The translations under genes and the position numbers were made by a program. A stretch of 64,000 nucleotides of DNA from an uncultured Methanosarcinales archaeon (lineage in GTDB: Archaea > Nanobdellota > Nanobdellia > Woesearchaeales > JAGVZT01): NCBI GenBank assembly GCA_964354685.1, contig CAYHAM010000001.1, positions 110,958-174,957 of the forward strand. The letters are read 5' to 3'. The notes beneath the pieces were generated by a model, which did not search any database, was not told the origin of the DNA, and saw only the letters and a program-made list of their open reading frames with translations. Shown here in pieces: positions 53,987-64,000 of the stretch. Each line of letters begins with the position of its first letter. Positions within the stretch are counted from its first letter, which is position 1.

Positions 53987-56900
53987 TTATAGAAACTTAC
54001 TAATTGCCTCATCTACAACATCCTCTTGCCAACCCACATCCAACAGGTTTTGTCTTATATTAGCCATTGTAACTTCCATAGTTAAGCATTCCTTTATATA
54101 ACTCTCCAATTCTGGATACCTTCTTGCTGATCTCTCAAGCTCAGGTAACTCAATTGTTGGTTGCTCAAAATCCTTCAAGTATTGCTCAACCTTAGTTAGT
54201 TCGCGGCTCTTGCTCATCTTCTTATATGATACAAACCCAACACCAGCAACTATAATTGTAACCAACACAATTGTTGCAATCAGTATTATCTTTAGTGTTT
54301 CTGCCCCTACCAACGACTCTTTAGGAATAGTTGGCTCTATTGTCTCAACAATAACATCCTCAGGCATCTCTTCTTGCTCTGGTTGTAAAGTGGGTGTTAT
54401 GGGTTGAGCAACTGCTGTTGAACTAATTGCAAACAAAGAGAATGAAGGCGCAGTTGCCTCATAGTGAACATAATTTGTCTCTGTGTTGAGCTTTTTAGTA
54501 GGCAGCTTTACCCATTTATTAGTGTACTTATATAATGCCATGTTGTCTGGATTGATATCATGTTGCTCTAACCATTCCCTCTCAATCCTAAACCTTATCT
54601 TAACCGTCTCAATATCCTCTTCTTTTAGGTTATCTTTTGTTATTTGTAAATATTGATAAACTGTTCCAGAATGGCTTGGAATAACCTCTGGCTCATCAAG
54701 CAACCTCTCAACAACAATCTCAACATTATACAGCTTTGTATTAACACTAAATATCATCCTTGTGAATGCTATCTCCTCATCAGCAATGTTCATTATTGTA
54801 GAACCCTCTTCTAATATTGATGACCAGAAATGCATAACCTTTGGATTCTCTTTAGAAGGTGTTGGTGTATACCCTCCTCCACTCCTATACCAAACAGAAA
54901 CAGTGAAGCTGAGCTCAAGCTGCTCGCCAGTGTTGTTATGAATATCTCTACACCTAACATAATAAGTCTTGACACCGTTTGCTAATTCACCTATATAATG
55001 ATCATGATAAGTGCCCTCCCCATATAATGTTAAATTCATCTGGTCATAACTAGTGCCATTTATTGTATCATACCTACAAGTGGCTGCCTCATCTGTCCAT
55101 ATCTCTAGTTTAACAGAGGGATCCTCAAGAGTGCCTTTTGGTTGGTAATCTGTTATATTTGGAGGAGTTAAGTCAGTAGTCTCATTTATAGGTGTGTCTG
55201 TTAGCAATGCAATATCTCCTATATCAGTAGAATTTACAACAATATTGTACGTAACATTATAATTTGCATAAGTAAATGTTATATTTGGTTCTATATACCC
55301 ATTTGTATCAGTTGTTCCGTTCCACAAAACACTAGTGCTATTCTCTATTGTTATTGATATGTTAACATCTGGCAAACTTGACTGGTTGATAATGTAAGTG
55401 GGGTAGAATCTTTTTATTGTCAGGTTGCCGCTGTTAAATGATACACTAGAAGGCATATTAACTAAACCATAAATTATTGCATAAGAATTATTGTCCTCTC
55501 CCTCTATTATATCTAAAAAATTAGTTATATAAGACTGTGTTGTGAAATTGATTGTTGAAAGACCATCAGATATGTTCAAGATACTTATGTTTGTATAGTT
55601 CCCGATTGTTATATCAGAGTGGAATGTTTTTAAAGTTGTTATATCAACTCCATATGAGGTCCATGTACTATTCAAAGCTGTAAAACTCAACTGACTAACA
55701 TTTGTGTTTGTTAGATTCAGTTGATAACTTGTTGTTGAAGAACTGATGTTTCTGTTAAGTGTTCCTGCTCTTATATCATTTAATGTAATATTGCCATTAT
55801 CAACCCATATTACTAAAGAATCCATTGTACAATTTATCACACTGCTAGAAGAATTGCCTCTAAAAGTAGCATCACCAAGATTAGAGCTTTGGATTGTATT
55901 TGCAGAACTGCTCACCACTGTAGCATCCTGTACTATTATAGTTTGGATATTATTTGATACACTACCTCCACTTATCGACAGATAAGAAATATTAGTGTTG
56001 GTAACATATGAATCATTTGAAGTAAGATAAACAGAGATATAATACAAATCACTATTTGTTATGTTCACCTCAAAGTTGTTTGATAAAGAATATATCCTAT
56101 TTGTCCCAGGCACAACATAGCTTAAATTAGTGATATTTAATCCACCTCCCTCAAAATCAAACTCTTGCGAAAAGTTGGTGTTGGTTAGTCTATTTATAGA
56201 ATTACCCATAAATTTGCCTCTTGTAATCTGGGAATTATCAAATATATTTGTTGAATCTTCATACACAAATACAGAATATGTAGACGCAACTGTAAAGTCT
56301 GAATTGTTGAAATAGGTAGTGGAGTTGGCTCTTGATAATATTGAATAAAACGTGCCATTATTAGCATTAATAGTGGTGTTCTCATCAAATTCAAGAGAAT
56401 TGCTGAAAATCGAGTTTGTGATTGTTAGTTGAGCATTACCATCAGATTCTGAAGAATCATCAATCATATAAACAACAGAATCTACTATAGAAACATTCGC
56501 ATTGTTCTGGAAATAAAAGTTTGTTACATTTATAGTACTTCTATTAATTGTAAAATTTACATTGTTTCTTATGTATAAATCACTTGACAAAACACTAATA
56601 TTTGTGTTATCAACCAAGAAATTCTGCGTACCACCCATTATCAAATTTGATGATGAGTATAAGTTGACTGTATTTGAATACAAACCATAATCTATGTTTG
56701 AACTCAAAGTATTATTAACCCAAGTAACATTTGATGAATTAGACAAATAAACTCCATAAGAGAAGTTCACCACATTGCAGTTTTTCAATTTTATATTGCT
56801 ATAATTTGTAACATTTATTCCGATTCCTGTCTCATTCCCTGTTATAGAATACCCAGCACAATCTAACGTTATTGAGTTATTTAATATTGTGAAACAAGTC

Positions 56901-59900
56901 CCGTTAACATTCACATCAATAACAAGGGTTGTGTCATTATATATATCTCCGCAGGAGGTTGGTGCAATAATTGTTTTTGTTGCACTTGTGTAATCTGAAT
57001 AGTACAGACCATCAAAGGTCCTGACTGTGCAGTTCCATGTTTCTCCTACAGTGGTGTTATCAGAACCAAGGGTTGTGATTAATGAGTTTGTTCCATTGGA
57101 AACACCAGTAGTATTCCCAGAAACAACAGGTGTTGGATCAGTTCCATTATACCACCAATACTCAACAGTTAGTGTTGTATTCTTAGCATCAGTTGGAGTT
57201 GCATTACATGTTAGATTATCTGATGAATATGCAACTGTTGGTAGCATCACTACTCCTGATATAGATGGTTTGTCTTCTGTAGTAAAGCTGTAAGGCCCTA
57301 ACTCCGCACAATTGCTCTCATTATCACAAGAGCTGATATTATAATAGTACAAGGTGTTTGGTAATAATCCTGTTAAAGGAACATTGTGTCCTTGGGTCAC
57401 ATTAGAGGAATTGTATGTGTAAATACCTAAACCAAGGGTAATATTGTAATTAACACTAGAGTTGCTTGGAGTATCTGTGTCCCATTGTATTACAGCAGAC
57501 TCGTTTGTGATAGATGTATTTGTTATATTCTCTATTACCATAGTGATGCTTAAATCATCCAAGGTAGAGATATTAAACAAACTAATAGAAGAATTACAAG
57601 TAACATTAAATTGGTATGTGCCCAGAGCCAAGAAAGTCCTATTGTACTGATACAATTCTCTGGTTTCATTAAATATCATATCCTCAAATGAACCCCAGCC
57701 AGCAACATTGAACTTAATTTGGCATGAACCATTATACTCACTTGAATTGCTTATTATTGTTCCATTGGTTGATGTGTAATTTGCAAAAAAGTACACGCTA
57801 TTATTAATCCCTCTTGTTTGACTACCCTCTTCTGCATCTGTTGAATCCCAAATTGTTAGATTCGAATCTTCTGTTGCAGCATAACTTGTAAATCCAGTTA
57901 CACTAAAGGTTATGTTCCCTCCAGAACTTGGTAGTAATGTACACTCGTTTCCACAAAGCAAACCATCTTTTAAAATAACCGGATCATTTATCCCCGTGTT
58001 AAACAAGGTGATGTTTGCAGAGCTGTTGAATGATGTATGCAAACCAGAAGAGTTTATTGAAACCAAATTGTTTGAGATATTTATGTTTAAATCAAAGTCT
58101 TGGCCAGAAGCATTAACCGTGTTTAACCATACTATTTTACCCACATCTGTGATTTCTATTGTTGCATTAGACACATTTTCTATATTGGGCACAGAATTGA
58201 AGTCTGTGGAAGAACCATTAAATTCTGTATAGTTTGATGATGTACCGTTCTTTATTGTTACAGTTGAACTTGCATAGTCTGAATAATAAGTACCATCAAA
58301 AGCTCTTACTGTGCAGTTCCATGTCTCACCTGCAGTTGTATTGTCAGAACCAAGGGTTGTTATCAAAGAGTTTGTGCCATTAGCAACGTCAGTTGTATTC
58401 CCAGACAACATCAATGTAGAACCATTATACCACCAGTACTCAACTGTCAGAGTTGAGCTCTCAGCATCTGTTGGAGTTGCATTACAAGTTAGATTACTCG
58501 ATGAGTAAGCAAGTAAAGGTAAAATAGTTGGTGTAGATATACTTGGTGCTGTTATTAATGTTGAAATATTTAATGGTGTATCTGTTACCAGATTAATGTC
58601 ATAAATATCAGTAGTAGCCACAATATCATAAATAACATTATAATCTGCATAAGTAAAGGTTATATTCGGCTCTATGTAGCCATTTGCATCAGTTGTTCCA
58701 TTCCACAAAACAGTGCTTCCGTTTTGTATTGTTATTACCTTGTTTATGTCAGGCAAACCTGATTCATTGACCACATAAGTTGGATAAAATCTCGAAAGAG
58801 CCCTGGTTGATGAAATAGTTGCTATCGTATCATTATTAATTGTTATATTTCCCCTGATTGTATTCTTTCCAACTGTATTAACATCCCATCCAATAATCTG
58901 ATTAACACTATTTGAACCAACAAAGGTTACATTAGCATAACTATCGAATGTGCTATTTCCTGTGACATTTGAATTTGTAAAGGTTGTAATAGATGTGCCT
59001 AAGAAGTTTGCATTTCCTGTTGTTGTGTTCTCCATAGAATTCACTCCAGTGCCTCCTAAACTCAAAGTGTCAAAGTTAGAATCGGTGATTGTTGCACTAG
59101 AACCAGTCTCTGTGTACAATGAGAAATTTAACACATCAACATTTGTTAGATTCACAGAAAAAGCACCTGTTGTGTTAATATGTCTAGTTATACCACTTGA
59201 AGGGCTCAAACTGTCAATTGTTATATTTGTATCATATAAATGCATGCTAATGTGAGGCACAGTACTGTTGATTATTGTTGTATCAGAAAGATTCCTAACA
59301 TTCAAATCTGCACTAAAAACACAATCAGTGAACGTATTGGTTGAATTATGGTCAAGAAGTATAGAGACGGCAGGGGTTTCAGTGTTCACAAACACATTTG
59401 CATAGGCTTCTGTAGTAGGATATGTTATTCTGACAGAATATTGACTTCCAGATTTATTATGGATGAGTTTTGTACCAAAAGTGGTGTAATAACCCATCTC
59501 ACCGCTGTCATTATACTCATAATATGTATCTTTTCCAGGAGCCACATCAAATGCTGTATCAGGGGTTATTGCTTTTATTGTACTTTTACTACTATTAAAT
59601 CCAGCACTTATGGTAAAGTTGGTTCCACTCTCCAAAACACCATTTTGGTCCTCTTCAACTATTGAAATATTATGCGTCTCTTTATTACTTATTGGCGACC
59701 TTAAATCAATTGTTAATCCTTTTTTGGTGTAAATCTTGGCACTTGCATCTGAACTTGCAGATACCACAACACTTGGTTCGATGTAATTAACAGATGTCAA
59801 AACCAAGTCAACATCACCTACACTAATAGTACACCCATTTGTGCATGTTGCCTGGTAAGTTGCACCGTCTGCAAGATCTTTTATTCTTGTGACATTTTGT

Positions 59901-62710
59901 GAGTTTATATTATCAATCTCAACAATATGAGACTTGCGCTCTGTTGCATCTGAAAGCACAAGGTAGTCACCAACCCATATTATACCAGCTGTTGTCCATA
60001 ACTTACCACTTGCGTTTGTGGCGGCCTTACCAAAATTGGTCCAGTTATCCAAGTTACTTGAATACAAAATATCTAAAGTTGTTGTTCCTGCCTCTAATGG
60101 TGCGCTTAACTCTATCTTGTCATCACCGTGTGGTCTAAGGATTATCCCCTCCTCAACCCAGTCATGAGTCATTCCCTCAAACTCAACCTTATACGAGCCT
60201 AGCCTAGGGAATAACAACTCATCCCCAACAGCTGCAAAGAGTTCATCAGCTGGTGCCCACCAAAGCACAATCTTATCTATCTGCACATAATTAGCTCCAG
60301 TGTTTATAAAAAAGTCAGTGTAAAGCCCTTCTATCTCTATTCCATCAATTGTTACATTTGAGTTAAAATAATCTGATGTATTTGCATCTGTTAATACTAT
60401 CCTGTGTCCCCCTCCAATCATCTCCCAGATAATTGAATTACCATTCCTTTCTGCTTTAGTTACAGTATACTTGGTACCCATTATTTCCATAGTTGTGCCC
60501 TCAAAGTTGCATAACTTGTTTGCATAACCACAAATCTCATCTGCATACCAATAGCTCTCTGCTAAGCCAGGGAAAGTAAGAGTATACCACATAAACTTTG
60601 CTTTTGAAGCACCAGTCCCTAATGATTTCGGTCCATAAACCATTAAATAAGGATTGTCTGGGTCTGTATAATCACTATCTCTCAAGAACTGAATACTTGC
60701 ATTCCTTGACACCCCCCATTCTAATTTTTGAGTGTACGCAAAGCTACTACTCCCAAGATATTCCGCAATTAAATATGTTCTGTTTGATAATAATTGTGGT
60801 AAATTACTATCATTTAGCTCTGCCTTGACTGATGCAAATGACTCATTAATTGTTAGCTTATTGCTATCTGTTTCTATTTTAGCACTCTCTCCAGAAAGAT
60901 CGCCACCTGAGAAACCAACAATACTACAATTCTCAAAGGTGTTTACAGAGTTATCTAGCAGGTACAAAGAATCTGTTATTGTAGAATTTATAAACGTGTT
61001 AATTGAGTTATGATAGACTGTAATGTTGCCAAATGAAGTTGTGTTGAAAGTGTTGTTTGTGTTATCATAAATAAACAAATCACCATCTATGGTTGAATTC
61101 TCAAAAGTGTTAACTGAGCTATTTTCAAGGTATAGTACACCAGTTAGTTCAAGCCCTTGTATAAAATTTACAGTTGTATCTTGGAAGTATGATACCCCTC
61201 CTATAGTTAAATTAATTAAGTTACTATTAGAGCTTGCCCCTATGTTTATCCCTTTTTCTATAGTTATATTAGTCATATTATTTGAAGAGGTGCTTCCCCC
61301 TTCAATTGTGACAGACTTGAAGATGGAGTTTGTAATAACATTTGTTGAATTATCATAAAAGTAAAATTCAAAATATGAGATGTTTGAGTTTGTTACGTTG
61401 ATAGCATAAGAGGTAGTTGCTGATTGAATACTATTTGTGATAGATATGTTTGGTATTAGACCATCTATTGTTAAAGAGGCATCATCCTCTGAGTATATCC
61501 TATAATATCCTGTTAAATTACTGTTAATTAATATAACAGACGTATTTTGTCTACTAGTTATTGAGTTTACTGTTGAGTTCTCAAATAACCCTACAGAGTC
61601 ATTTTTGAAGTAAAAAATAGCACTCATAGAATTTGTAAAGGTTATATCAGCACTATCCGTCATATAAACAATACCACTTACACTGATATTTGTCTTATCC
61701 ATAAACAAATTTTGAGTACTATTTACTGTCCAGTCCTCTGTTAATGTTACATTGCTCTCTAATGCATAAAATTCATACAAACTGTTTTGACCATATGTAT
61801 TGTTAGTCAAGGTTAATTCTTGTGAATTAGATACATAAACACCATAAGAAAAGTTCGTAACAGAACAATCTATTAAAGTAATATTCCCATACCCTGTAAC
61901 ATTTATCCCAATCCCTGTCCCATTTCCCGTTATAGAATACCCAGCACAATCTAATGTTATTGAATCATTTAATATTGTAAAACAAGTTCCATTAGAGTTT
62001 ACATCAATAACAAGGGTTGTGTCATTATATATATCTCCGCAGGAGGTTGGTGCAATAATTGTTTTTGTTGCACTTGTGTAATCTGAATAGTACAGACCAT
62101 CAAAGGTCCTGACTGTGCAGTTCCATGTTTCTCCTACAGTGGTGTTATCAGAACCAAGGGTTGTGATTAATGAGTTTGTTCCATTGGAAACACCAGTAGT
62201 ATTCCCAGAAACAACAGGTGTTGGATCAGTTCCATTATACCACCAATACTCAACAGTTAGTGTTGTATTCTTAGCATCAGTTGGAGTTGCATTACAAGTT
62301 AGATTATCTGATGAGTATGCAACTGTCGGGTATATCACTGCCCCAGATATTGAGGGATTGTCATCTGTTGTAAAATTATAGGGTCCAGACTCCTCACAAA
62401 TGCTTTCATTAGTGCAGCTGCTAACATTATAGTAATACAAAGTATTGGGTGTCAAATTTTCTAGATAAACTTGATGGCCTAAGGTAACCTCTGATGAGTT
62501 GTAGGCATAAATACCCAAACTAGTAGAAATGTTGTAGTTGACAGTAGCGTTGCTTAGATTTACAGTGTCCCATGTTATTATAGCAGACTCATTTGTTATG
62601 GAAGAATTTGTTACGTTTTCTATTGTTAGCTGTGCTCTAACTGAAGTGATCACTAGTAAAAGCACAAGCAACAACAACTCTACCAATCTACTCCTCTTTA
62701 TCTTCATCAC
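53987..62710 (-). CDS. Giant (2907 aa) cell-surface glycoprotein: Fn3/Ig-like repeats, beta-helix repeats, S-layer-like insert, PGF-pre-PGF domain, TM anchor
   Basis: Signal peptide; very many N-x-S/T sequons; repeated LTCNATPTDA...ETWNCTVR modules; TLDCAGYSITG beta-helix starts; VYQYL...YEATAPSFSLFAI; C-terminal TM. Confidence 0.85.
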   Translation of the reverse strand: MMKIKRSRLVELLLLVLLLVITSVRAQLTIENVTNSSITNESAIITWDTVNLSNATVNYNISTSLGIYAYNSSEVTLGHQVYLENLTPNTLYYYNVSSCTNESICEESGPYNFTTDDNPSISGAVIYPTVAYSSDNLTCNATPTDAKNTTLTVEYWWYNGTDPTPVVSGNTTGVSNGTNSLITTLGSDNTTVGETWNCTVRTFDGLYYSDYTSATKTIIAPTSCGDIYNDTTLVIDVNSNGTCFTILNDSITLDCAGYSITGNGTGIGINVTGYGNITLIDCSVTNFSYGVYVSNSQELTLTNNTYGQNSLYEFYALESNVTLTEDWTVNSTQNLFMDKTNISVSGIVYMTDSADITFTNSMSAIFYFKNDSVGLFENSTVNSITSRQNTSVILINSNLTGYYRIYSEDDASLTIDGLIPNISITNSIQSATTSYAINVTNSNISYFEFYFYDNSTNVITNSIFKSVTIEGGSTSSNNMTNITIEKGINIGASSNSNLINLTIGGVSYFQDTTVNFIQGLELTGVLYLENSSVNTFENSTIDGDLFIYDNTNNTFNTTSFGNITVYHNSINTFINSTITDSLYLLDNSVNTFENCSIVGFSGGDLSGESAKIETDSNKLTINESFASVKAELNDSNLPQLLSNRTYLIAEYLGSSSFAYTQKLEWGVSRNASIQFLRDSDYTDPDNPYLMVYGPKSLGTGASKAKFMWYTLTFPGLAESYWYADEICGYANKLCNFEGTTMEIMGTKYTVTKAERNGNSIIWEMIGGGHRIVLTDANTSDYFNSNVTIDGIEIEGLYTDFFINTGANYVQIDKIVLWWAPADELFAAVGDELLFPRLGSYKVEFEGMTHDWVEEGIILRPHGDDKIELSAPLEAGTTTLDILYSSNLDNWTNFGKAATNASGKLWTTAGIIWVGDYLVLSDATERKSHIVEIDNINSQNVTRIKDLADGATYQATCTNGCTISVGDVDLVLTSVNYIEPSVVVSASSDASAKIYTKKGLTIDLRSPISNKETHNISIVEEDQNGVLESGTNFTISAGFNSSKSTIKAITPDTAFDVAPGKDTYYEYNDSGEMGYYTTFGTKLIHNKSGSQYSVRITYPTTEAYANVFVNTETPAVSILLDHNSTNTFTDCVFSADLNVRNLSDTTIINSTVPHISMHLYDTNITIDSLSPSSGITRHINTTGAFSVNLTNVDVLNFSLYTETGSSATITDSNFDTLSLGGTGVNSMENTTTGNANFLGTSITTFTNSNVTGNSTFDSYANVTFVGSNSVNQIIGWDVNTVGKNTIRGNITINNDTIATISSTRALSRFYPTYVVNESGLPDINKVITIQNGSTVLWNGTTDANGYIEPNITFTYADYNVIYDIVATTDIYDINLVTDTPLNISTLITAPSISTPTILPLLAYSSSNLTCNATPTDAESSTLTVEYWWYNGSTLMLSGNTTDVANGTNSLITTLGSDNTTAGETWNCTVRAFDGTYYSDYASSTVTIKNGTSSNYTEFNGSSTDFNSVPNIENVSNATIEITDVGKIVWLNTVNASGQDFDLNINISNNLVSINSSGLHTSFNSSANITLFNTGINDPVILKDGLLCGNECTLLPSSGGNITFSVTGFTSYAATEDSNLTIWDSTDAEEGSQTRGINNSVYFFANYTSTNGTIISNSSEYNGSCQIKFNVAGWGSFEDMIFNETRELYQYNRTFLALGTYQFNVTCNSSISLFNISTLDDLSITMVIENITNTSITNESAVIQWDTDTPSNSSVNYNITLGLGIYTYNSSNVTQGHNVPLTGLLPNTLYYYNISSCDNESNCAELGPYSFTTEDKPSISGVVMLPTVAYSSDNLTCNATPTDAKNTTLTVEYWWYNGTDPTPVVSGNTTGVSNGTNSLITTLGSDNTTVGETWNCTVRTFDGLYYSDYTSATKTIIAPTSCGDIYNDTTLVIDVNVNGTCFTILNNSITLDCAGYSITGNETGIGINVTNYSNIKLKNCNVVNFSYGVYLSNSSNVTWVNNTLSSNIDYGLYSNTVNLYSSSNLIMGGTQNFLVDNTNISVLSSDLYIRNNVNFTINRSTINVTNFYFQNNANVSIVDSVVYMIDDSSESDGNAQLTITNSIFSNSLEFDENTTINANNGTFYSILSRANSTTYFNNSDFTVASTYSVFVYEDSTNIFDNSQITRGKFMGNSINRLTNTNFSQEFDFEGGGLNITNLSYVVPGTNRIYSLSNNFEVNITNSDLYYISVYLTSNDSYVTNTNISYLSISGGSVSNNIQTIIVQDATVVSSSANTIQSSNLGDATFRGNSSSSVINCTMDSLVIWVDNGNITLNDIRAGTLNRNISSSTTSYQLNLTNTNVSQLSFTALNSTWTSYGVDITTLKTFHSDITIGNYTNISILNISDGLSTINFTTQSYITNFLDIIEGEDNNSYAIIYGLVNMPSSVSFNSGNLTIKRFYPTYIINQSSLPDVNISITIENSTSVLWNGTTDTNGYIEPNITFTYANYNVTYNIVVNSTDIGDIALLTDTPINETTDLTPPNITDYQPKGTLEDPSVKLEIWTDEAATCRYDTINGTSYDQMNLTLYGEGTYHDHYIGELANGVKTYYVRCRDIHNNTGEQLELSFTVSVWYRSGGGYTPTPSKENPKVMHFWSSILEEGSTIMNIADEEIAFTRMIFSVNTKLYNVEIVVERLLDEPEVIPSHSGTVYQYLQITKDNLKEEDIETVKIRFRIEREWLEQHDINPDNMALYKYTNKWVKLPTKKLNTETNYVHYEATAPSFSLFAISSTAVAQPITPTLQPEQEEMPEDVIVETIEPTIPKESLVGAETLKIILIATIVLVTIIVAGVGFVSYKKMSKSRELTKVEQYLKDFEQPTIELPELERSARRYPELESYIKECLTMEVTMANIRQNLLDVGWQEDVVDEAISKFL
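56913..57208. repeat. Intragenic ~296-bp direct repeat, copy 2 (copy 1 at 62001-62296)
   Basis: Appears nucleotide-identical by eye to 62001-62296 (offset 5088); a diverged third copy is at ~58260-58510. Confidence 0.85.
62001..62296. repeat. Intragenic ~296-bp direct repeat, copy 1
   Basis: Same sequence as 56913-57208. Confidence 0.85.
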
Positions 62711-62858
62711 CCTCTTTTATCTTCTCCATAACCAAGCTTTCAAAGCAGTGGCTCTCATTAGCATACACTTTCTCAGCTATCTTCTTGTAAACCCATTTTA
62801 GAATATCTTCGTCTATGTTCAGCCACACCCTTTTCTTAGCTGGTTTTGGTCTTTTCAT
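62688..62858 (-). CDS. Ribbon-helix-helix (CopG/MetJ-like) DNA-binding protein
   Basis: KKRVWLNIDEDILKWV...YANESHCFESLV pattern; overlaps the start of the giant surface gene. ATG 62858. Confidence 0.65.
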   Translation of the reverse strand: MKRPKPAKKRVWLNIDEDILKWVYKKIAEKVYANESHCFESLVMEKIKEGDEDKEE

Positions 62859-62960
62859 GTGATAATTATCAATTTTTAACAATTTTATATATCATTATTG
62901 ATTTTTAACAACCAATATTTAATTTTTATGATATTTTTAAATTTTTGTGATTTTCATCAC
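62859..62960. promoter_or_regulatory. TGAT-N4-ATCA palindromes, candidate RHH operators
   Basis: TGATAATTATCA at 62860-62871 and GTGATTTTCATCAC at 62947-62960. Confidence 0.45.
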
Positions 62961-63020
62961 TTTTAAACCTTTCGGTTTTTAACCAAAAATATATATAATT
63001 CAAACCCTTAGCCAAGTTTT

Positions 63021-63425
63021 ATGATAAAGGAAATAAGTGTCTCTTCAAGCAAAGAAAACCAGTTACTAGATATTACTTCTCAAGTTGAAGAGGTTGTCAA
63101 GCAATCAAAAATCAAGCAAGGACTTTGCATAGTATATGTGCCCCATGCAACTGCTGCTCTAATGATAAATGAGAACTATGACCCGAATGTATGTGATGAT
63201 ATCCTAGACTCTTTAAGAGAAAACATACCAGAAGGCAAGTGGAAGCATGATAGAGTAGACAACAATGCAGCTGCACATATAAAATCTGCAATAATAGGCC
63301 CAAATGAATTAATCCCAATAAAAGATGGAAAGCTATTGCTTGGAACATGGCAAAGCTTGATGCTTGCAGACTTTGATGGCCCTAAGAGAAGAAGGATTTA
63401 TGTACAGATAATTGAGGATAAGTAA
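63021..63425 (+). CDS. yjbQ: YjbQ (UPF0047) family protein
   Basis: PHATAALMINEN, HD...NAAAHIKS, LLLGTWQ, DFDGPKRR. Confidence 0.92.
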   Translation: MIKEISVSSSKENQLLDITSQVEEVVKQSKIKQGLCIVYVPHATAALMINENYDPNVCDDILDSLRENIPEGKWKHDRVDNNAAAHIKSAIIGPNELIPIKDGKLLLGTWQSLMLADFDGPKRRRIYVQIIEDK

Positions 63426-63427
63426 AA

Positions 63428-63435
63428 TTTATATA
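63428..63435 (+). promoter_or_regulatory. TATA box for the thrS leader transcript
   Basis: TTTATATA ending 25 nt before ATG 63460, the spacing expected for a leaderless archaeal transcript. Confidence 0.55.
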
Positions 63436-63459
63436 TCTCAAACAATTCCCACTCCAAAT

Positions 63460-63531
63460 ATGGTTAGAGCAAATAAAATAAAAAACGTATTTTCTCTAGT
63501 TACAACTCTAACCACTACAACAACAGCTTAG
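63460..63531 (+). CDS. Thr-rich leader peptide (candidate attenuator) of thrS
   Basis: MVRANKIKNVFSLVTTLTTTTTA-stop: 7 Thr in the last 9 sense codons, directly upstream of threonyl-tRNA synthetase. Confidence 0.75.
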   Translation: MVRANKIKNVFSLVTTLTTTTTA

Positions 63532-63550
63532 GCTGTTCATTGTTTCTTTT
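63517..63550 (+). terminator. Hairpin plus U-tract at the end of the thrS leader
   Basis: AACAGC-TTAG-GCTGTT stem-loop (63522-63537, extendable via ACAA/TTGT) followed by TTTCTTTT. Confidence 0.5.
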
Positions 63551-63619
63551 AAAACTTAAGGAGGTTTTAAAGATATATTTAAATAAAAGCTAGATAAAAA
63601 TCAAACAAAGGTGAGAAAA

Positions 63620-64000
63620 ATGGAAATCGAATTAAGATTCAAAGATGGTTCAAAAAAGAAAGTTGAGAAAGGTGCAAAGCTAGCAGAAATTGCACCAAAG
63701 CAGGCAATAGCTGCTAGACTAGATGATAAATTAGTTGACTTAAGCAGAGCTGTTGACAAAAATGCACAAGTTGAATTCATAAGCGTAGATTCCAAAGAAG
63801 GAATAGAAGTTTTACGCCATTCTGCTGCCCATGTTCTAGCACAAGCTGTTGTTAGCCTATTCCCAAAAGCATTGCCAACAATAGGCCCAGTTGTTGAAGA
63901 AGGATTTTACTATGATTTTGAACACGAGCCATTCATTCCTGAGGATCTGAAAAAAATAGAAAAAGAAATGCAAAGGATAGTTGCTAGAAACGAAAAATTT
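63620..64000 (+). CDS. thrS: Threonyl-tRNA synthetase, bacterial-type N-terminus (3' end outside window)
   Basis: GGTGA RBS; MEIELRFKDGS...TGS domain; LRHSAAHVLAQAV...TIGPVVEEGFYYDF...DLKKIEKEM. Confidence 0.93.
   Translation, partial: MEIELRFKDGSKKKVEKGAKLAEIAPKQAIAARLDDKLVDLSRAVDKNAQVEFISVDSKEGIEVLRHSAAHVLAQAVVSLFPKALPTIGPVVEEGFYYDFEHEPFIPEDLKKIEKEMQRIVARNEKF

Follow-up and report, generated by a model that had tools for sequence, protein, structure and literature searches.

The DNA analysed here, a stretch of 64,000 nt of an archaeal genome (the window), ends within thrS, the gene for threonyl-tRNA synthetase (ThrRS), and a small upstream open reading frame (uORF) of 23 codons precedes that gene. 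Threonine accounts for 7 of the last 10 codons of this leader, and its stop codon falls in the loop of a predicted hairpin. We propose, with a probability of roughly 0.6, that the thrS leader is a cis-acting leader-peptide sensor of charged tRNA-Thr, functioning as a ribosome-mediated attenuator within a multi-locus regulon. If the output is left unspecified, so that this explanation and its first rival are added together, a leader that senses its cognate tRNA is very probable. Sequence comparison establishes the uORF and its leaderless geometry, the link to thrS or threonine biosynthesis, the hairpin and a set of sister leaders for other amino acids, and both the sensor and its cis linkage appear well supported.

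The threonine leader and its relatives

The first-pass annotation of the window had listed a TATA box, an ATG, a short ORF, two RNA pairings, a hairpin, a U-tract and thrS, all of which were recovered at the same positions. Below, G000 is the source genome of the window, G001, G002 and so on are the relatives compared with it, and folds are minimum free energy (MFE) predictions.

63428..63435, + strand: TATA box of the leader promoter P1, TTTATATA, 24 nt 5' of the leader ATG
63445..63450, + strand: ATTCCC promoter-proximal motif, common to the leader promoters of G000 (genome pattern count)
63460..63531, + strand: leader ORF MVRANKIKNVFSLVTTLTTTTTA, 23 codons plus TAG (stop 63529-63531), from the sequence and the small-ORF census
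63502..63525, + strand: Thr codon run, codons 15, 16 and 18-22 (ACA ACT cta ACC ACT ACA ACA ACA), from the sequence
63461..63514, + strand: 5'-end stem, TGGTTAGAG (63461-63469) with CTCTAACCA (63506-63514), MFE fold
63517..63543, + strand: stop-codon hairpin, which spans the last Thr codons and has the TAG in its loop (MFE fold, terminator scan, alignment)
63522-27/63532-37 (63522-63537), + strand: inner stem of that hairpin, AACAGC-TTAG-GCTGTT
63517-20/63540-43, + strand: outer stem of that hairpin
63538..63550, + strand: CATTGTTTCTTTT, which forms the 3' side of the outer stem and continues into a U-rich tract (candidate for a termination signal), conserved in near kin
63549..63570, + strand: second predicted hairpin UUAAAACUU/AGGUUUUAA, overlapping the end of the U-tract (MFE fold only; low confidence)
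63578..63585, + strand: TATA-like TTTAAATA, possible second promoter P2, 34-35 nt 5' of the thrS ATG
63610..63614, + strand: Shine-Dalgarno (SD) sequence of thrS, GGTGA, from the sequence
63620..64000, + strand: 5' part of thrS (TIGR00418), which leaves the window; 623 aa from the ATG

The leader peptide ends in VTTLTTTTTA, and 88 nt separate its stop codon from the thrS ATG; positions 63428-63435 of the window sequence also read tttatata. The thrS product scores 705 bits against TIGR00418 (cut-off 383.65), and the ThrRS of G000 is of the bacterial type, with 45-53% identity to bacterial ThrRS.

Uniqueness in the genome and conservation in relatives together argue that the leader is not a chance occurrence. 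A census of every ATG-initiated ORF of 6-60 codons in 784 upstream regions of G000 returned 1023 small ORFs, and the thrS leader was the sole Thr-rich one among them, Thr-rich being defined as at least 5 Thr in any 8 residues. The thrS upstream regions of 41 related genomes were inspected as well. Thr-rich uORFs ahead of thrS in relatives, without which the first-pass annotation would have given up its proposal, do exist: a short ATG-initiated ORF with a Thr run lies 5' of thrS in 8/8 family genomes (G000 counted, G007 fetched separately), and further families have it too. In the nearest relatives the leader ends in ...TTTTT(T)A-stop, followed by the same hairpin and CATTGTTTCTTTT, the latter being identical or nearly so in G001, G004, G006, G007 and G352. 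In G002, G003 and G005 the leader is shorter or has interspersed Ala, and both the N-terminal part of the leader peptide and the gene upstream vary among family genomes. Among the 7 other family genomes, 6 keep AAGGTGA ahead of thrS. Outside the family, a Thr-run uORF was present at 2/26 thrS loci (G014 and G028), and most of the remaining loci lack a uORF and carry a TATA box some 22-30 nt ahead of the thrS ATG.

A gene-blind pattern, ACNACNACNACNGCNTARGC, was run on 401 genomes of the order with the reversed pattern as control; it matched in 14/401 genomes, and the reversed control gave 5. Two of the 14 matches lie inside long ORFs. The remaining 12 are small ORFs, 15-32 codons in length, and wherever the flank suffices a TATA-like 8-mer is located 21-25 nt before the ATG; downstream of them we found bacterial-type thrS (10), an unknown 239-aa gene (1) and homoserine dehydrogenase, a Thr-pathway enzyme (1; NF004976, 505.7 bits, cut-off 205). 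A second sample of 301 genomes of the phylum contributed one more leader within the order, in G500, before an archaeal-type thrS; no Thr leader was found in the 84 genomes of this sample that belong to other orders. The pattern-found leaders of the order number 13 in total: 11 before thrS, 1 before homoserine dehydrogenase and 1 before the unknown gene. Because it also occurs before homoserine dehydrogenase and archaeal-type thrS, the leader is not tied to one gene lineage; it tracks threonine function rather than one gene or one lineage of thrS, the ThrRS being archaeal-type in G500 and bacterial-type elsewhere.

Three of the genomes used (G004, G188 and G249) are unpublished, and 3 of the 12 leader-like matches come from them; without these genomes the family count is 7/7 and the leader-like pattern matches are 9. 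G004 also enters the leuS leader count given below, and G188 supplies one of the two U-A cells of the covariation analysis. A metagenome scan with a 26-nt degenerate pattern returned 5 stretches, 3 of which are C-terminal ends of long frames and 2 leader-like; the N-terminus of a bacterial-type thrS was not detectable in the flank available for the latter two. A contig search with ThrRS gave 67 loci and no new leaders; since this ThrRS is bacterial-type, almost all of the loci are bacterial, 1 being archaeal (G007).

Sister leaders and promoter geometry

The first-pass annotation had also pointed to cognate-codon uORFs at other aminoacyl-tRNA synthetase (aaRS) genes as something to be expected. 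In G000 they were found before leuS, valS, ileS, metS, cysK-cysS and asnA-asnS, and an Asp-rich leader precedes the gene for phosphoenolpyruvate (PEP) carboxylase.

C1:87649-87711, - strand: Leu-rich leader, ...LLVLLLLL, before leuS
C2:218119-218163, - strand: Val leader, ...VVVVVL, before valS
C9:22154-22219, - strand: Ile leader, ...SFIIII, before ileS
C4:119916-119987, + strand: Met leader, ...VMAMMMA, before metS
C2:98978-99043, - strand: Cys leader, ...CCCCCKCDCC, before cysK-GNAT-cysS
C8:29994-30062, - strand: Asn leader, ...SNN, before asnA (asparagine synthetase A)-asnS
C7:44833-44883, - strand: Asp-rich leader before archaeal PEP carboxylase

All genes downstream of a leader exceed their NCBIfam cut-offs, and in the cysK-GNAT-cysS and asnA-asnS operons a biosynthetic gene is paired with that of the corresponding aaRS. 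A rough binomial estimate puts the chance of finding 6 or more cognate matches among the 39 ORFs rich in a single residue at 1.4e-11. Within the family, leaders recur for Ile in 5/7 genomes, for Met in 4/6, for Val in 3/7 and for Leu in 2/8. A Pfam-based aaRS census of G000 revealed no such uORF at serS, proS, glyS, lysS, aspS, trpS, tyrS, gltX, argS, pheST, alaS or hisS; these uORF-free genes are plain leaderless, except for proS, which is SD-led with a more distant TATA-like sequence, and the operon-internal pheT.

The geometry of the promoters bears on how these leaders would be translated. Across the genome, TATA 8-mers lie most often 23-24 nt before a start codon, in a sharp peak of 65 and 49 genes over a background of about 8-10; this is the signature of leaderless mRNAs. 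The leader ATGs sit on this peak, that of the thrS leader at 24 nt, and in the Thr leaders of relatives the same regular expression places the TATA box 21-26 nt before the ATG. Moreover, the pattern TATA-N4-14-[AC]TTCCC-N-ATG occurs 9 times in the whole genome, both strands included, and 7/9 of these occurrences are cognate-codon leaders, so that 7/8 leaders carry it; the other two belong to a uL16/L10e-like gene (C2:26761) and a 240-aa gene without assigned function (C5:52471). The [AC]TTCCC motif lies about 10 nt before the leader ATG and could be a site for a common regulator or an unusual initiator element; by eye, relatives show no clear conservation of it. The repeats also bear a coding signature. 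When 17 Thr leaders are aligned, their Thr codons differ at the wobble position but hardly or not at all at positions 1 and 2, and the leader Thr codons follow normal genome usage (ACA 56%, ACT 27.5%, ACC 13.6%).

SD-like motifs were present before 7/8 leader-controlled genes, against 30% of all genes (p=0.0013) and 10.5% of the genes with an on-peak TATA, and the cys, asp and asn spacers hold no TATA-like sequence at all. The SD enrichment and the TATA-free spacers suggest co-transcription of leader and gene.

Some other small elements of G000 were noted beside these leaders. Behind the metS leader lies a spacer of about 200 nt with two long multi-stem domains (leader and spacer, G000:C4:119916-120199; fold -88.8 kcal/mol, z=-4.37, 0/200 shuffles) and no Rfam match; it is an inserted structured element, relatives having just 48-56 nt there. 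A Cys-rich small ORF (…CRQCCCCRII, G000:C4:8500-9007) lies 177 nt before a bacterial-type metK and was rejected as a leader, being non-cognate and lacking the TATA/TTCCC geometry. A small ORF or element starting MRL(N/R)(T/R)GNS was seen at C1:176426(+), C2:1286(+), C3:102011(+), C3:133689(-) and C5:65539(-), and one of these copies overlaps thrS at its 3' end; the element is probably a repeat, not a leader. By eye, a gene for RNA polymerase subunit N lies upstream of leuS.

RNA structure, proposed mechanism and alternatives

The two pairings of the first-pass annotation had different fates: the stop-codon hairpin is conserved and covaries, whereas the 5' stem is strong only in G000 and its nearest kin. 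Covarying stems had been suggested as a sign of function, and the stop-codon hairpin does have compensatory changes among 17 Thr leaders. In its inner stem, 80.9% of cells are paired and both partners have changed in 4/6 pairs. The last Thr codon has a wobble base that changes together with its partner, the pair being A-U (10 leaders), U-A (2) or G-C (1). Covariation scored 0.174 against 0.092 in column shuffles (0/500 reach it) and 0.02-0.04 when the 3' partner was slid; kin sequences can beat shuffles without any structure, a bias from which the slid control is free. The outer stem is weaker (61.8% paired) and links the earlier Thr codons with a conserved CATTGT; in one genome ACAA/TTGT is swapped for CCAC/GTGG. 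The duplex of the 5' stem amounts to -13.5 kcal/mol in G000, a value reached by 0/200 shuffles; the stem is weak in G001, G005, G006 and G007 and does not exceed shuffles in the remaining 13 leaders, so that it is lineage-specific. The fold of the 171-nt region alone is unremarkable (z-score -1.78; 7/200 shuffles fold equally well). A terminator scan found 1 site against 0.8 expected, the reported site being the stop-codon hairpin, and pairings resembling the second predicted hairpin at 63549..63570 were visible by eye in G001 and G007.

The U-tract noted in the first-pass annotation is present in 11/18 Thr leaders, counting a TTTT within 30 nt past the hairpin, compared with 34% of 833 control windows (p=0.016, the leaders being kin and not independent). 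In the genome family f92 (3 loci, 2 of them from the unpublished G188 and G249), a second conserved 9-bp hairpin with variable loops replaces the U-tract. In Thr and Met leaders, the motif YCATTGT is the 3' half of the extended hairpin. It was set aside as a unique signal, since the genome contains 207 copies of TCATT[GT]T[TC]T (32 intergenic), for the most part the reverse complement of A-rich gene starts; judged by eye, masking of the thrS start codon by YCATTGT was also rejected, as the conserved G would mismatch.

Translation of the uORF, stalling of the ribosome and termination as the regulated step are what we infer from these sequence features. The transcript would start about 24 nt 3' of the TATA box, at or next to the AUG, and the uORF would thus be leaderless. 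A ribosome would read the 23-codon leader with RNA polymerase still close. The 5' arm and loop of the hairpin would consist of the final Thr codons together with the Ala and stop codons, with the U-rich tract past the 3' arm. When Thr-tRNA is plentiful, the ribosome would depart, the hairpin would fold, and transcription would terminate at the U-tract, either intrinsically or through aCPSF1/FttA. Among the proteins encoded by the genome is one of 637 aa of the beta-CASP type, with aCPSF1 as its best match. When Thr-tRNA is scarce, a ribosome stalled in the Thr run would hide the 5' arm, the hairpin would not form, and polymerase would read through into the SD-led thrS. Because the Thr codons themselves form the 5' arm, the stalled ribosome must keep that arm single-stranded; the footprint of a stalled ribosome extends some 12-15 nt beyond its A site. 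By covering the arm directly, the ribosome would stand in for an antiterminator, and occlusion-type attenuation, in which stalling leads to read-through and read-through to more ThrRS, would be the simplest model. As to the termination step, U-rich tracts are the termination signal in archaea; aCPSF1/FttA is reported to terminate there, and the archaeal polymerase needs no hairpin (PMC7515710). Premature termination as the regulated step is plausible but unproven.

Several observations weigh against attenuation. No TTTT run follows the hairpin in 7/18 Thr leaders. Within G000 the stop-codon hairpin is strong only for the thr, met, cys and leu leaders and weak for val, asp, ile and asn, and the difference in stability between the 8 leader hairpins and 1088 control windows is not significant (p=0.063). 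We found no mutually exclusive antiterminator: in the MFE fold both the 5' stem and the hairpin form, and the 5' stem is not conserved. As the stop codon lies in the loop, a terminating ribosome covers the hairpin, and the model needs polymerase to pause at the U-tract until release. TATA-like sequences occur in 5/8 leader-gene spacers, with the canonical distance of 24-27 nt to the ATG at valS and metS and an off-peak one at thrS, so that the genes may have promoters of their own. Finally, all the genomes compared are metagenome-assembled genomes of uncultured organisms.

The most serious alternative keeps the same sensor and moves the output to a post-transcriptional step, with stalling altering access to the thrS ribosome-binding site (RBS), RNA processing or RNA stability. 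The Thr leaders without a U-tract would fit such an output, as would the f92 leaders with their second hairpin, which suggests a different output module, and the conserved SD of thrS. The closest analogue points in the same direction: a preprint describes leaderless polycysteine small ORFs (sORFs) of mycobacteria in which a stalled ribosome blocks an RBS-sequestering duplex (bioRxiv 10.1101/834739). However, folding lends no support to translational RBS unmasking. In 10 scorable RNAs out of 15 leader-thrS RNAs, unpairing the footprint of a ribosome on the Thr run changed the predicted accessibility of the SD/AUG by at most +0.05 in 5, not at all in 1 and negatively in 4, such thermodynamic predictions on AT-rich RNA being weak evidence either way; no conserved anti-SD pairing was seen. 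We consider a post-transcriptional output unlikely, and still the strongest of the alternatives.

A second possibility is that the leader forms a separate small unit, a small RNA or peptide that acts in trans or has no function, and that thrS is transcribed only from its own spacer promoter TTTAAATA (63578-63585). The hairpin and U-tract could then merely end a small gene, the TATA-like sequences of the spacers, canonically spaced at valS and metS, would be the promoters, and an AT-rich block resembling TTTTAAAGATATAAATAAAAG is indeed kept past the thr terminator in near relatives. This scheme hardly accounts for the strict linkage of leader and cognate gene at 8 loci and in many genomes, which is difficult to explain without cis action, nor for the three spacers devoid of TATA-like sequence; in G002 just 51 nt with no evident TATA separate the leader stop from thrS. 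SD motifs, moreover, are enriched before leader-controlled genes and rare before leaderless ones, and the P2-to-ATG spacing of thrS is off the peak and variable (by eye, the P2-like AT-rich blocks of relatives lie from about 17 to 40 nt before the ATG). An internal basal promoter is in any case compatible with attenuation from P1, and a wholly separate unit is improbable. Least probable is that the ACN repeats act as RNA and not as codons, the frame being incidental and the ACA/ACC repeats pairing with the anticodon of uncharged tRNA-Thr in T-box fashion or binding a protein: an Rfam cmscan of 62700-64000 (E up to 10) gave no leader, Thr_leader, T-box or other family and the eight other leader regions (E up to 1) no match, every leader repeat is in frame with an ATG and directly followed by a stop, the TATA box stands at the leaderless distance where the flank suffices, wobble positions vary freely, and one architecture serves 8 different amino acids, AUG runs included.

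Host and comparison with known systems

The first-pass annotation had taken the host for an archaeon, and the genome bears this out: the partial small-subunit rRNA is archaeal (RF01959 best of its clan, 972 bits), LeuRS (leuS_arch, TIGR00395) and PEP carboxylase (PEPCase_arch) are of archaeal types, and the beta-CASP protein agrees. G000 has 1.28 Mb at 36% GC. The family member G007 is labelled "uncultured Methanosarcinales archaeon", a label that is probably wrong, because mcrA is absent from G000, a genome that is 100% complete, and the genomes of the phylum sample measure 0.5-2 Mb, a size that would fit a DPANN lineage such as Woesearchaeota. No tRNA was detected in the window, and aragorn found only 9 tRNAs in the genome, none of them tRNA-Thr. 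The gene 5' of the leader and thrS is yjbQ. Further upstream, a 2907-aa ORF (window 53987-62710, - strand) begins with a signal-like N-terminus, carries internal repeats and hundreds of N-x-S/T sequons and ends in a C-terminal membrane anchor, and its product is probably a giant glycosylated surface protein.

The first-pass annotation held that leader-peptide attenuation is not well established in archaea, and we agree: the literature searched contains no archaeal precedent, and no report of an archaeal leader-peptide attenuator was found in full texts, a body that leaves most subscription journals uncovered. A 2014 transcriptome paper states that attenuators and riboswitches in vivo in Archaea were without direct experimental support (PMC4247193), and a 2021 paper gives promoter recruitment as the only known target of activation and repression (PMC8448881). 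Regulation after initiation is a long-standing gap in archaeal biology. If our proposal is true, transcription-translation coupling in archaea serves gene control, and the leader offers a compact natural substrate of about 160 nt for the interplay of ribosome, hairpin, U-tract and FttA. It would also show how archaea with tiny genomes match tRNA charging to amino-acid supply, and the eight amino-acid-specific versions would provide built-in specificity controls.

Among known systems, T-box riboswitches and the Escherichia coli thrS operator resemble the proposed attenuator in that they raise aaRS levels when charged tRNA or enzyme is short; they differ in that T-box elements read tRNA or protein by RNA structure, without a leader peptide. 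T-box elements are not known from archaea. With the leader families of Rfam there is no homology of sequence or structure.

Ribosome-mediated attenuators are classical in bacteria, with trpL, thrL, hisL and leuL, and pheM before pheST. The archaeal leaders are like them in having a short cognate-codon leader ORF before a gene for the same amino acid, aaRS genes included (as for pheST), a hairpin, with a U-rich tract behind it in part of the leaders, and several loci per genome, each tuned to its own amino acid. They differ in the archaeal host, the promoter made of a TATA box and a transcription factor B recognition element (BRE), and the leaderless uORF. They differ also in their RNA: no antiterminator was found, the codons form the 5' arm of the hairpin with the stop in the loop, and the U-tract is not universal. 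A further difference is archaeal termination at U-tracts, which needs no hairpin and uses aCPSF1/FttA (PMC7515710).

The mycobacterial 'Cys ribulon' is described as a set of leaderless sORFs with consecutive Cys codons that form the first cistron at several independent loci and respond to one amino acid through ribosome pausing (bioRxiv 10.1101/834739). The likeness lies in the cognate-codon sORFs of leaderless geometry, and G000 too has a poly-Cys leader, before cysK-cysS. The mycobacterial system, on the other hand, is bacterial with a translational output, whereas folding gives no sign of RBS unmasking here, and the set in G000 covers eight amino acids with mainly aaRS targets. In its widest form our proposal would be the first natural ribosome-mediated attenuation in Archaea, in which at least 8 leaderless cognate-codon uORFs per genome gate aaRS and amino-acid genes, a stalled ribosome in each case blocking a hairpin and U-tract signal read by RNA polymerase and aCPSF1/FttA; the system would have arisen separately from bacterial attenuation, in a DPANN-like lineage dependent on scavenged amino acids. 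We hold this broader statement at even odds. Leader-peptide attenuation itself is known from bacteria; what is new here is the domain, the promoter, the polymerase, the termination apparatus and a simpler RNA logic.

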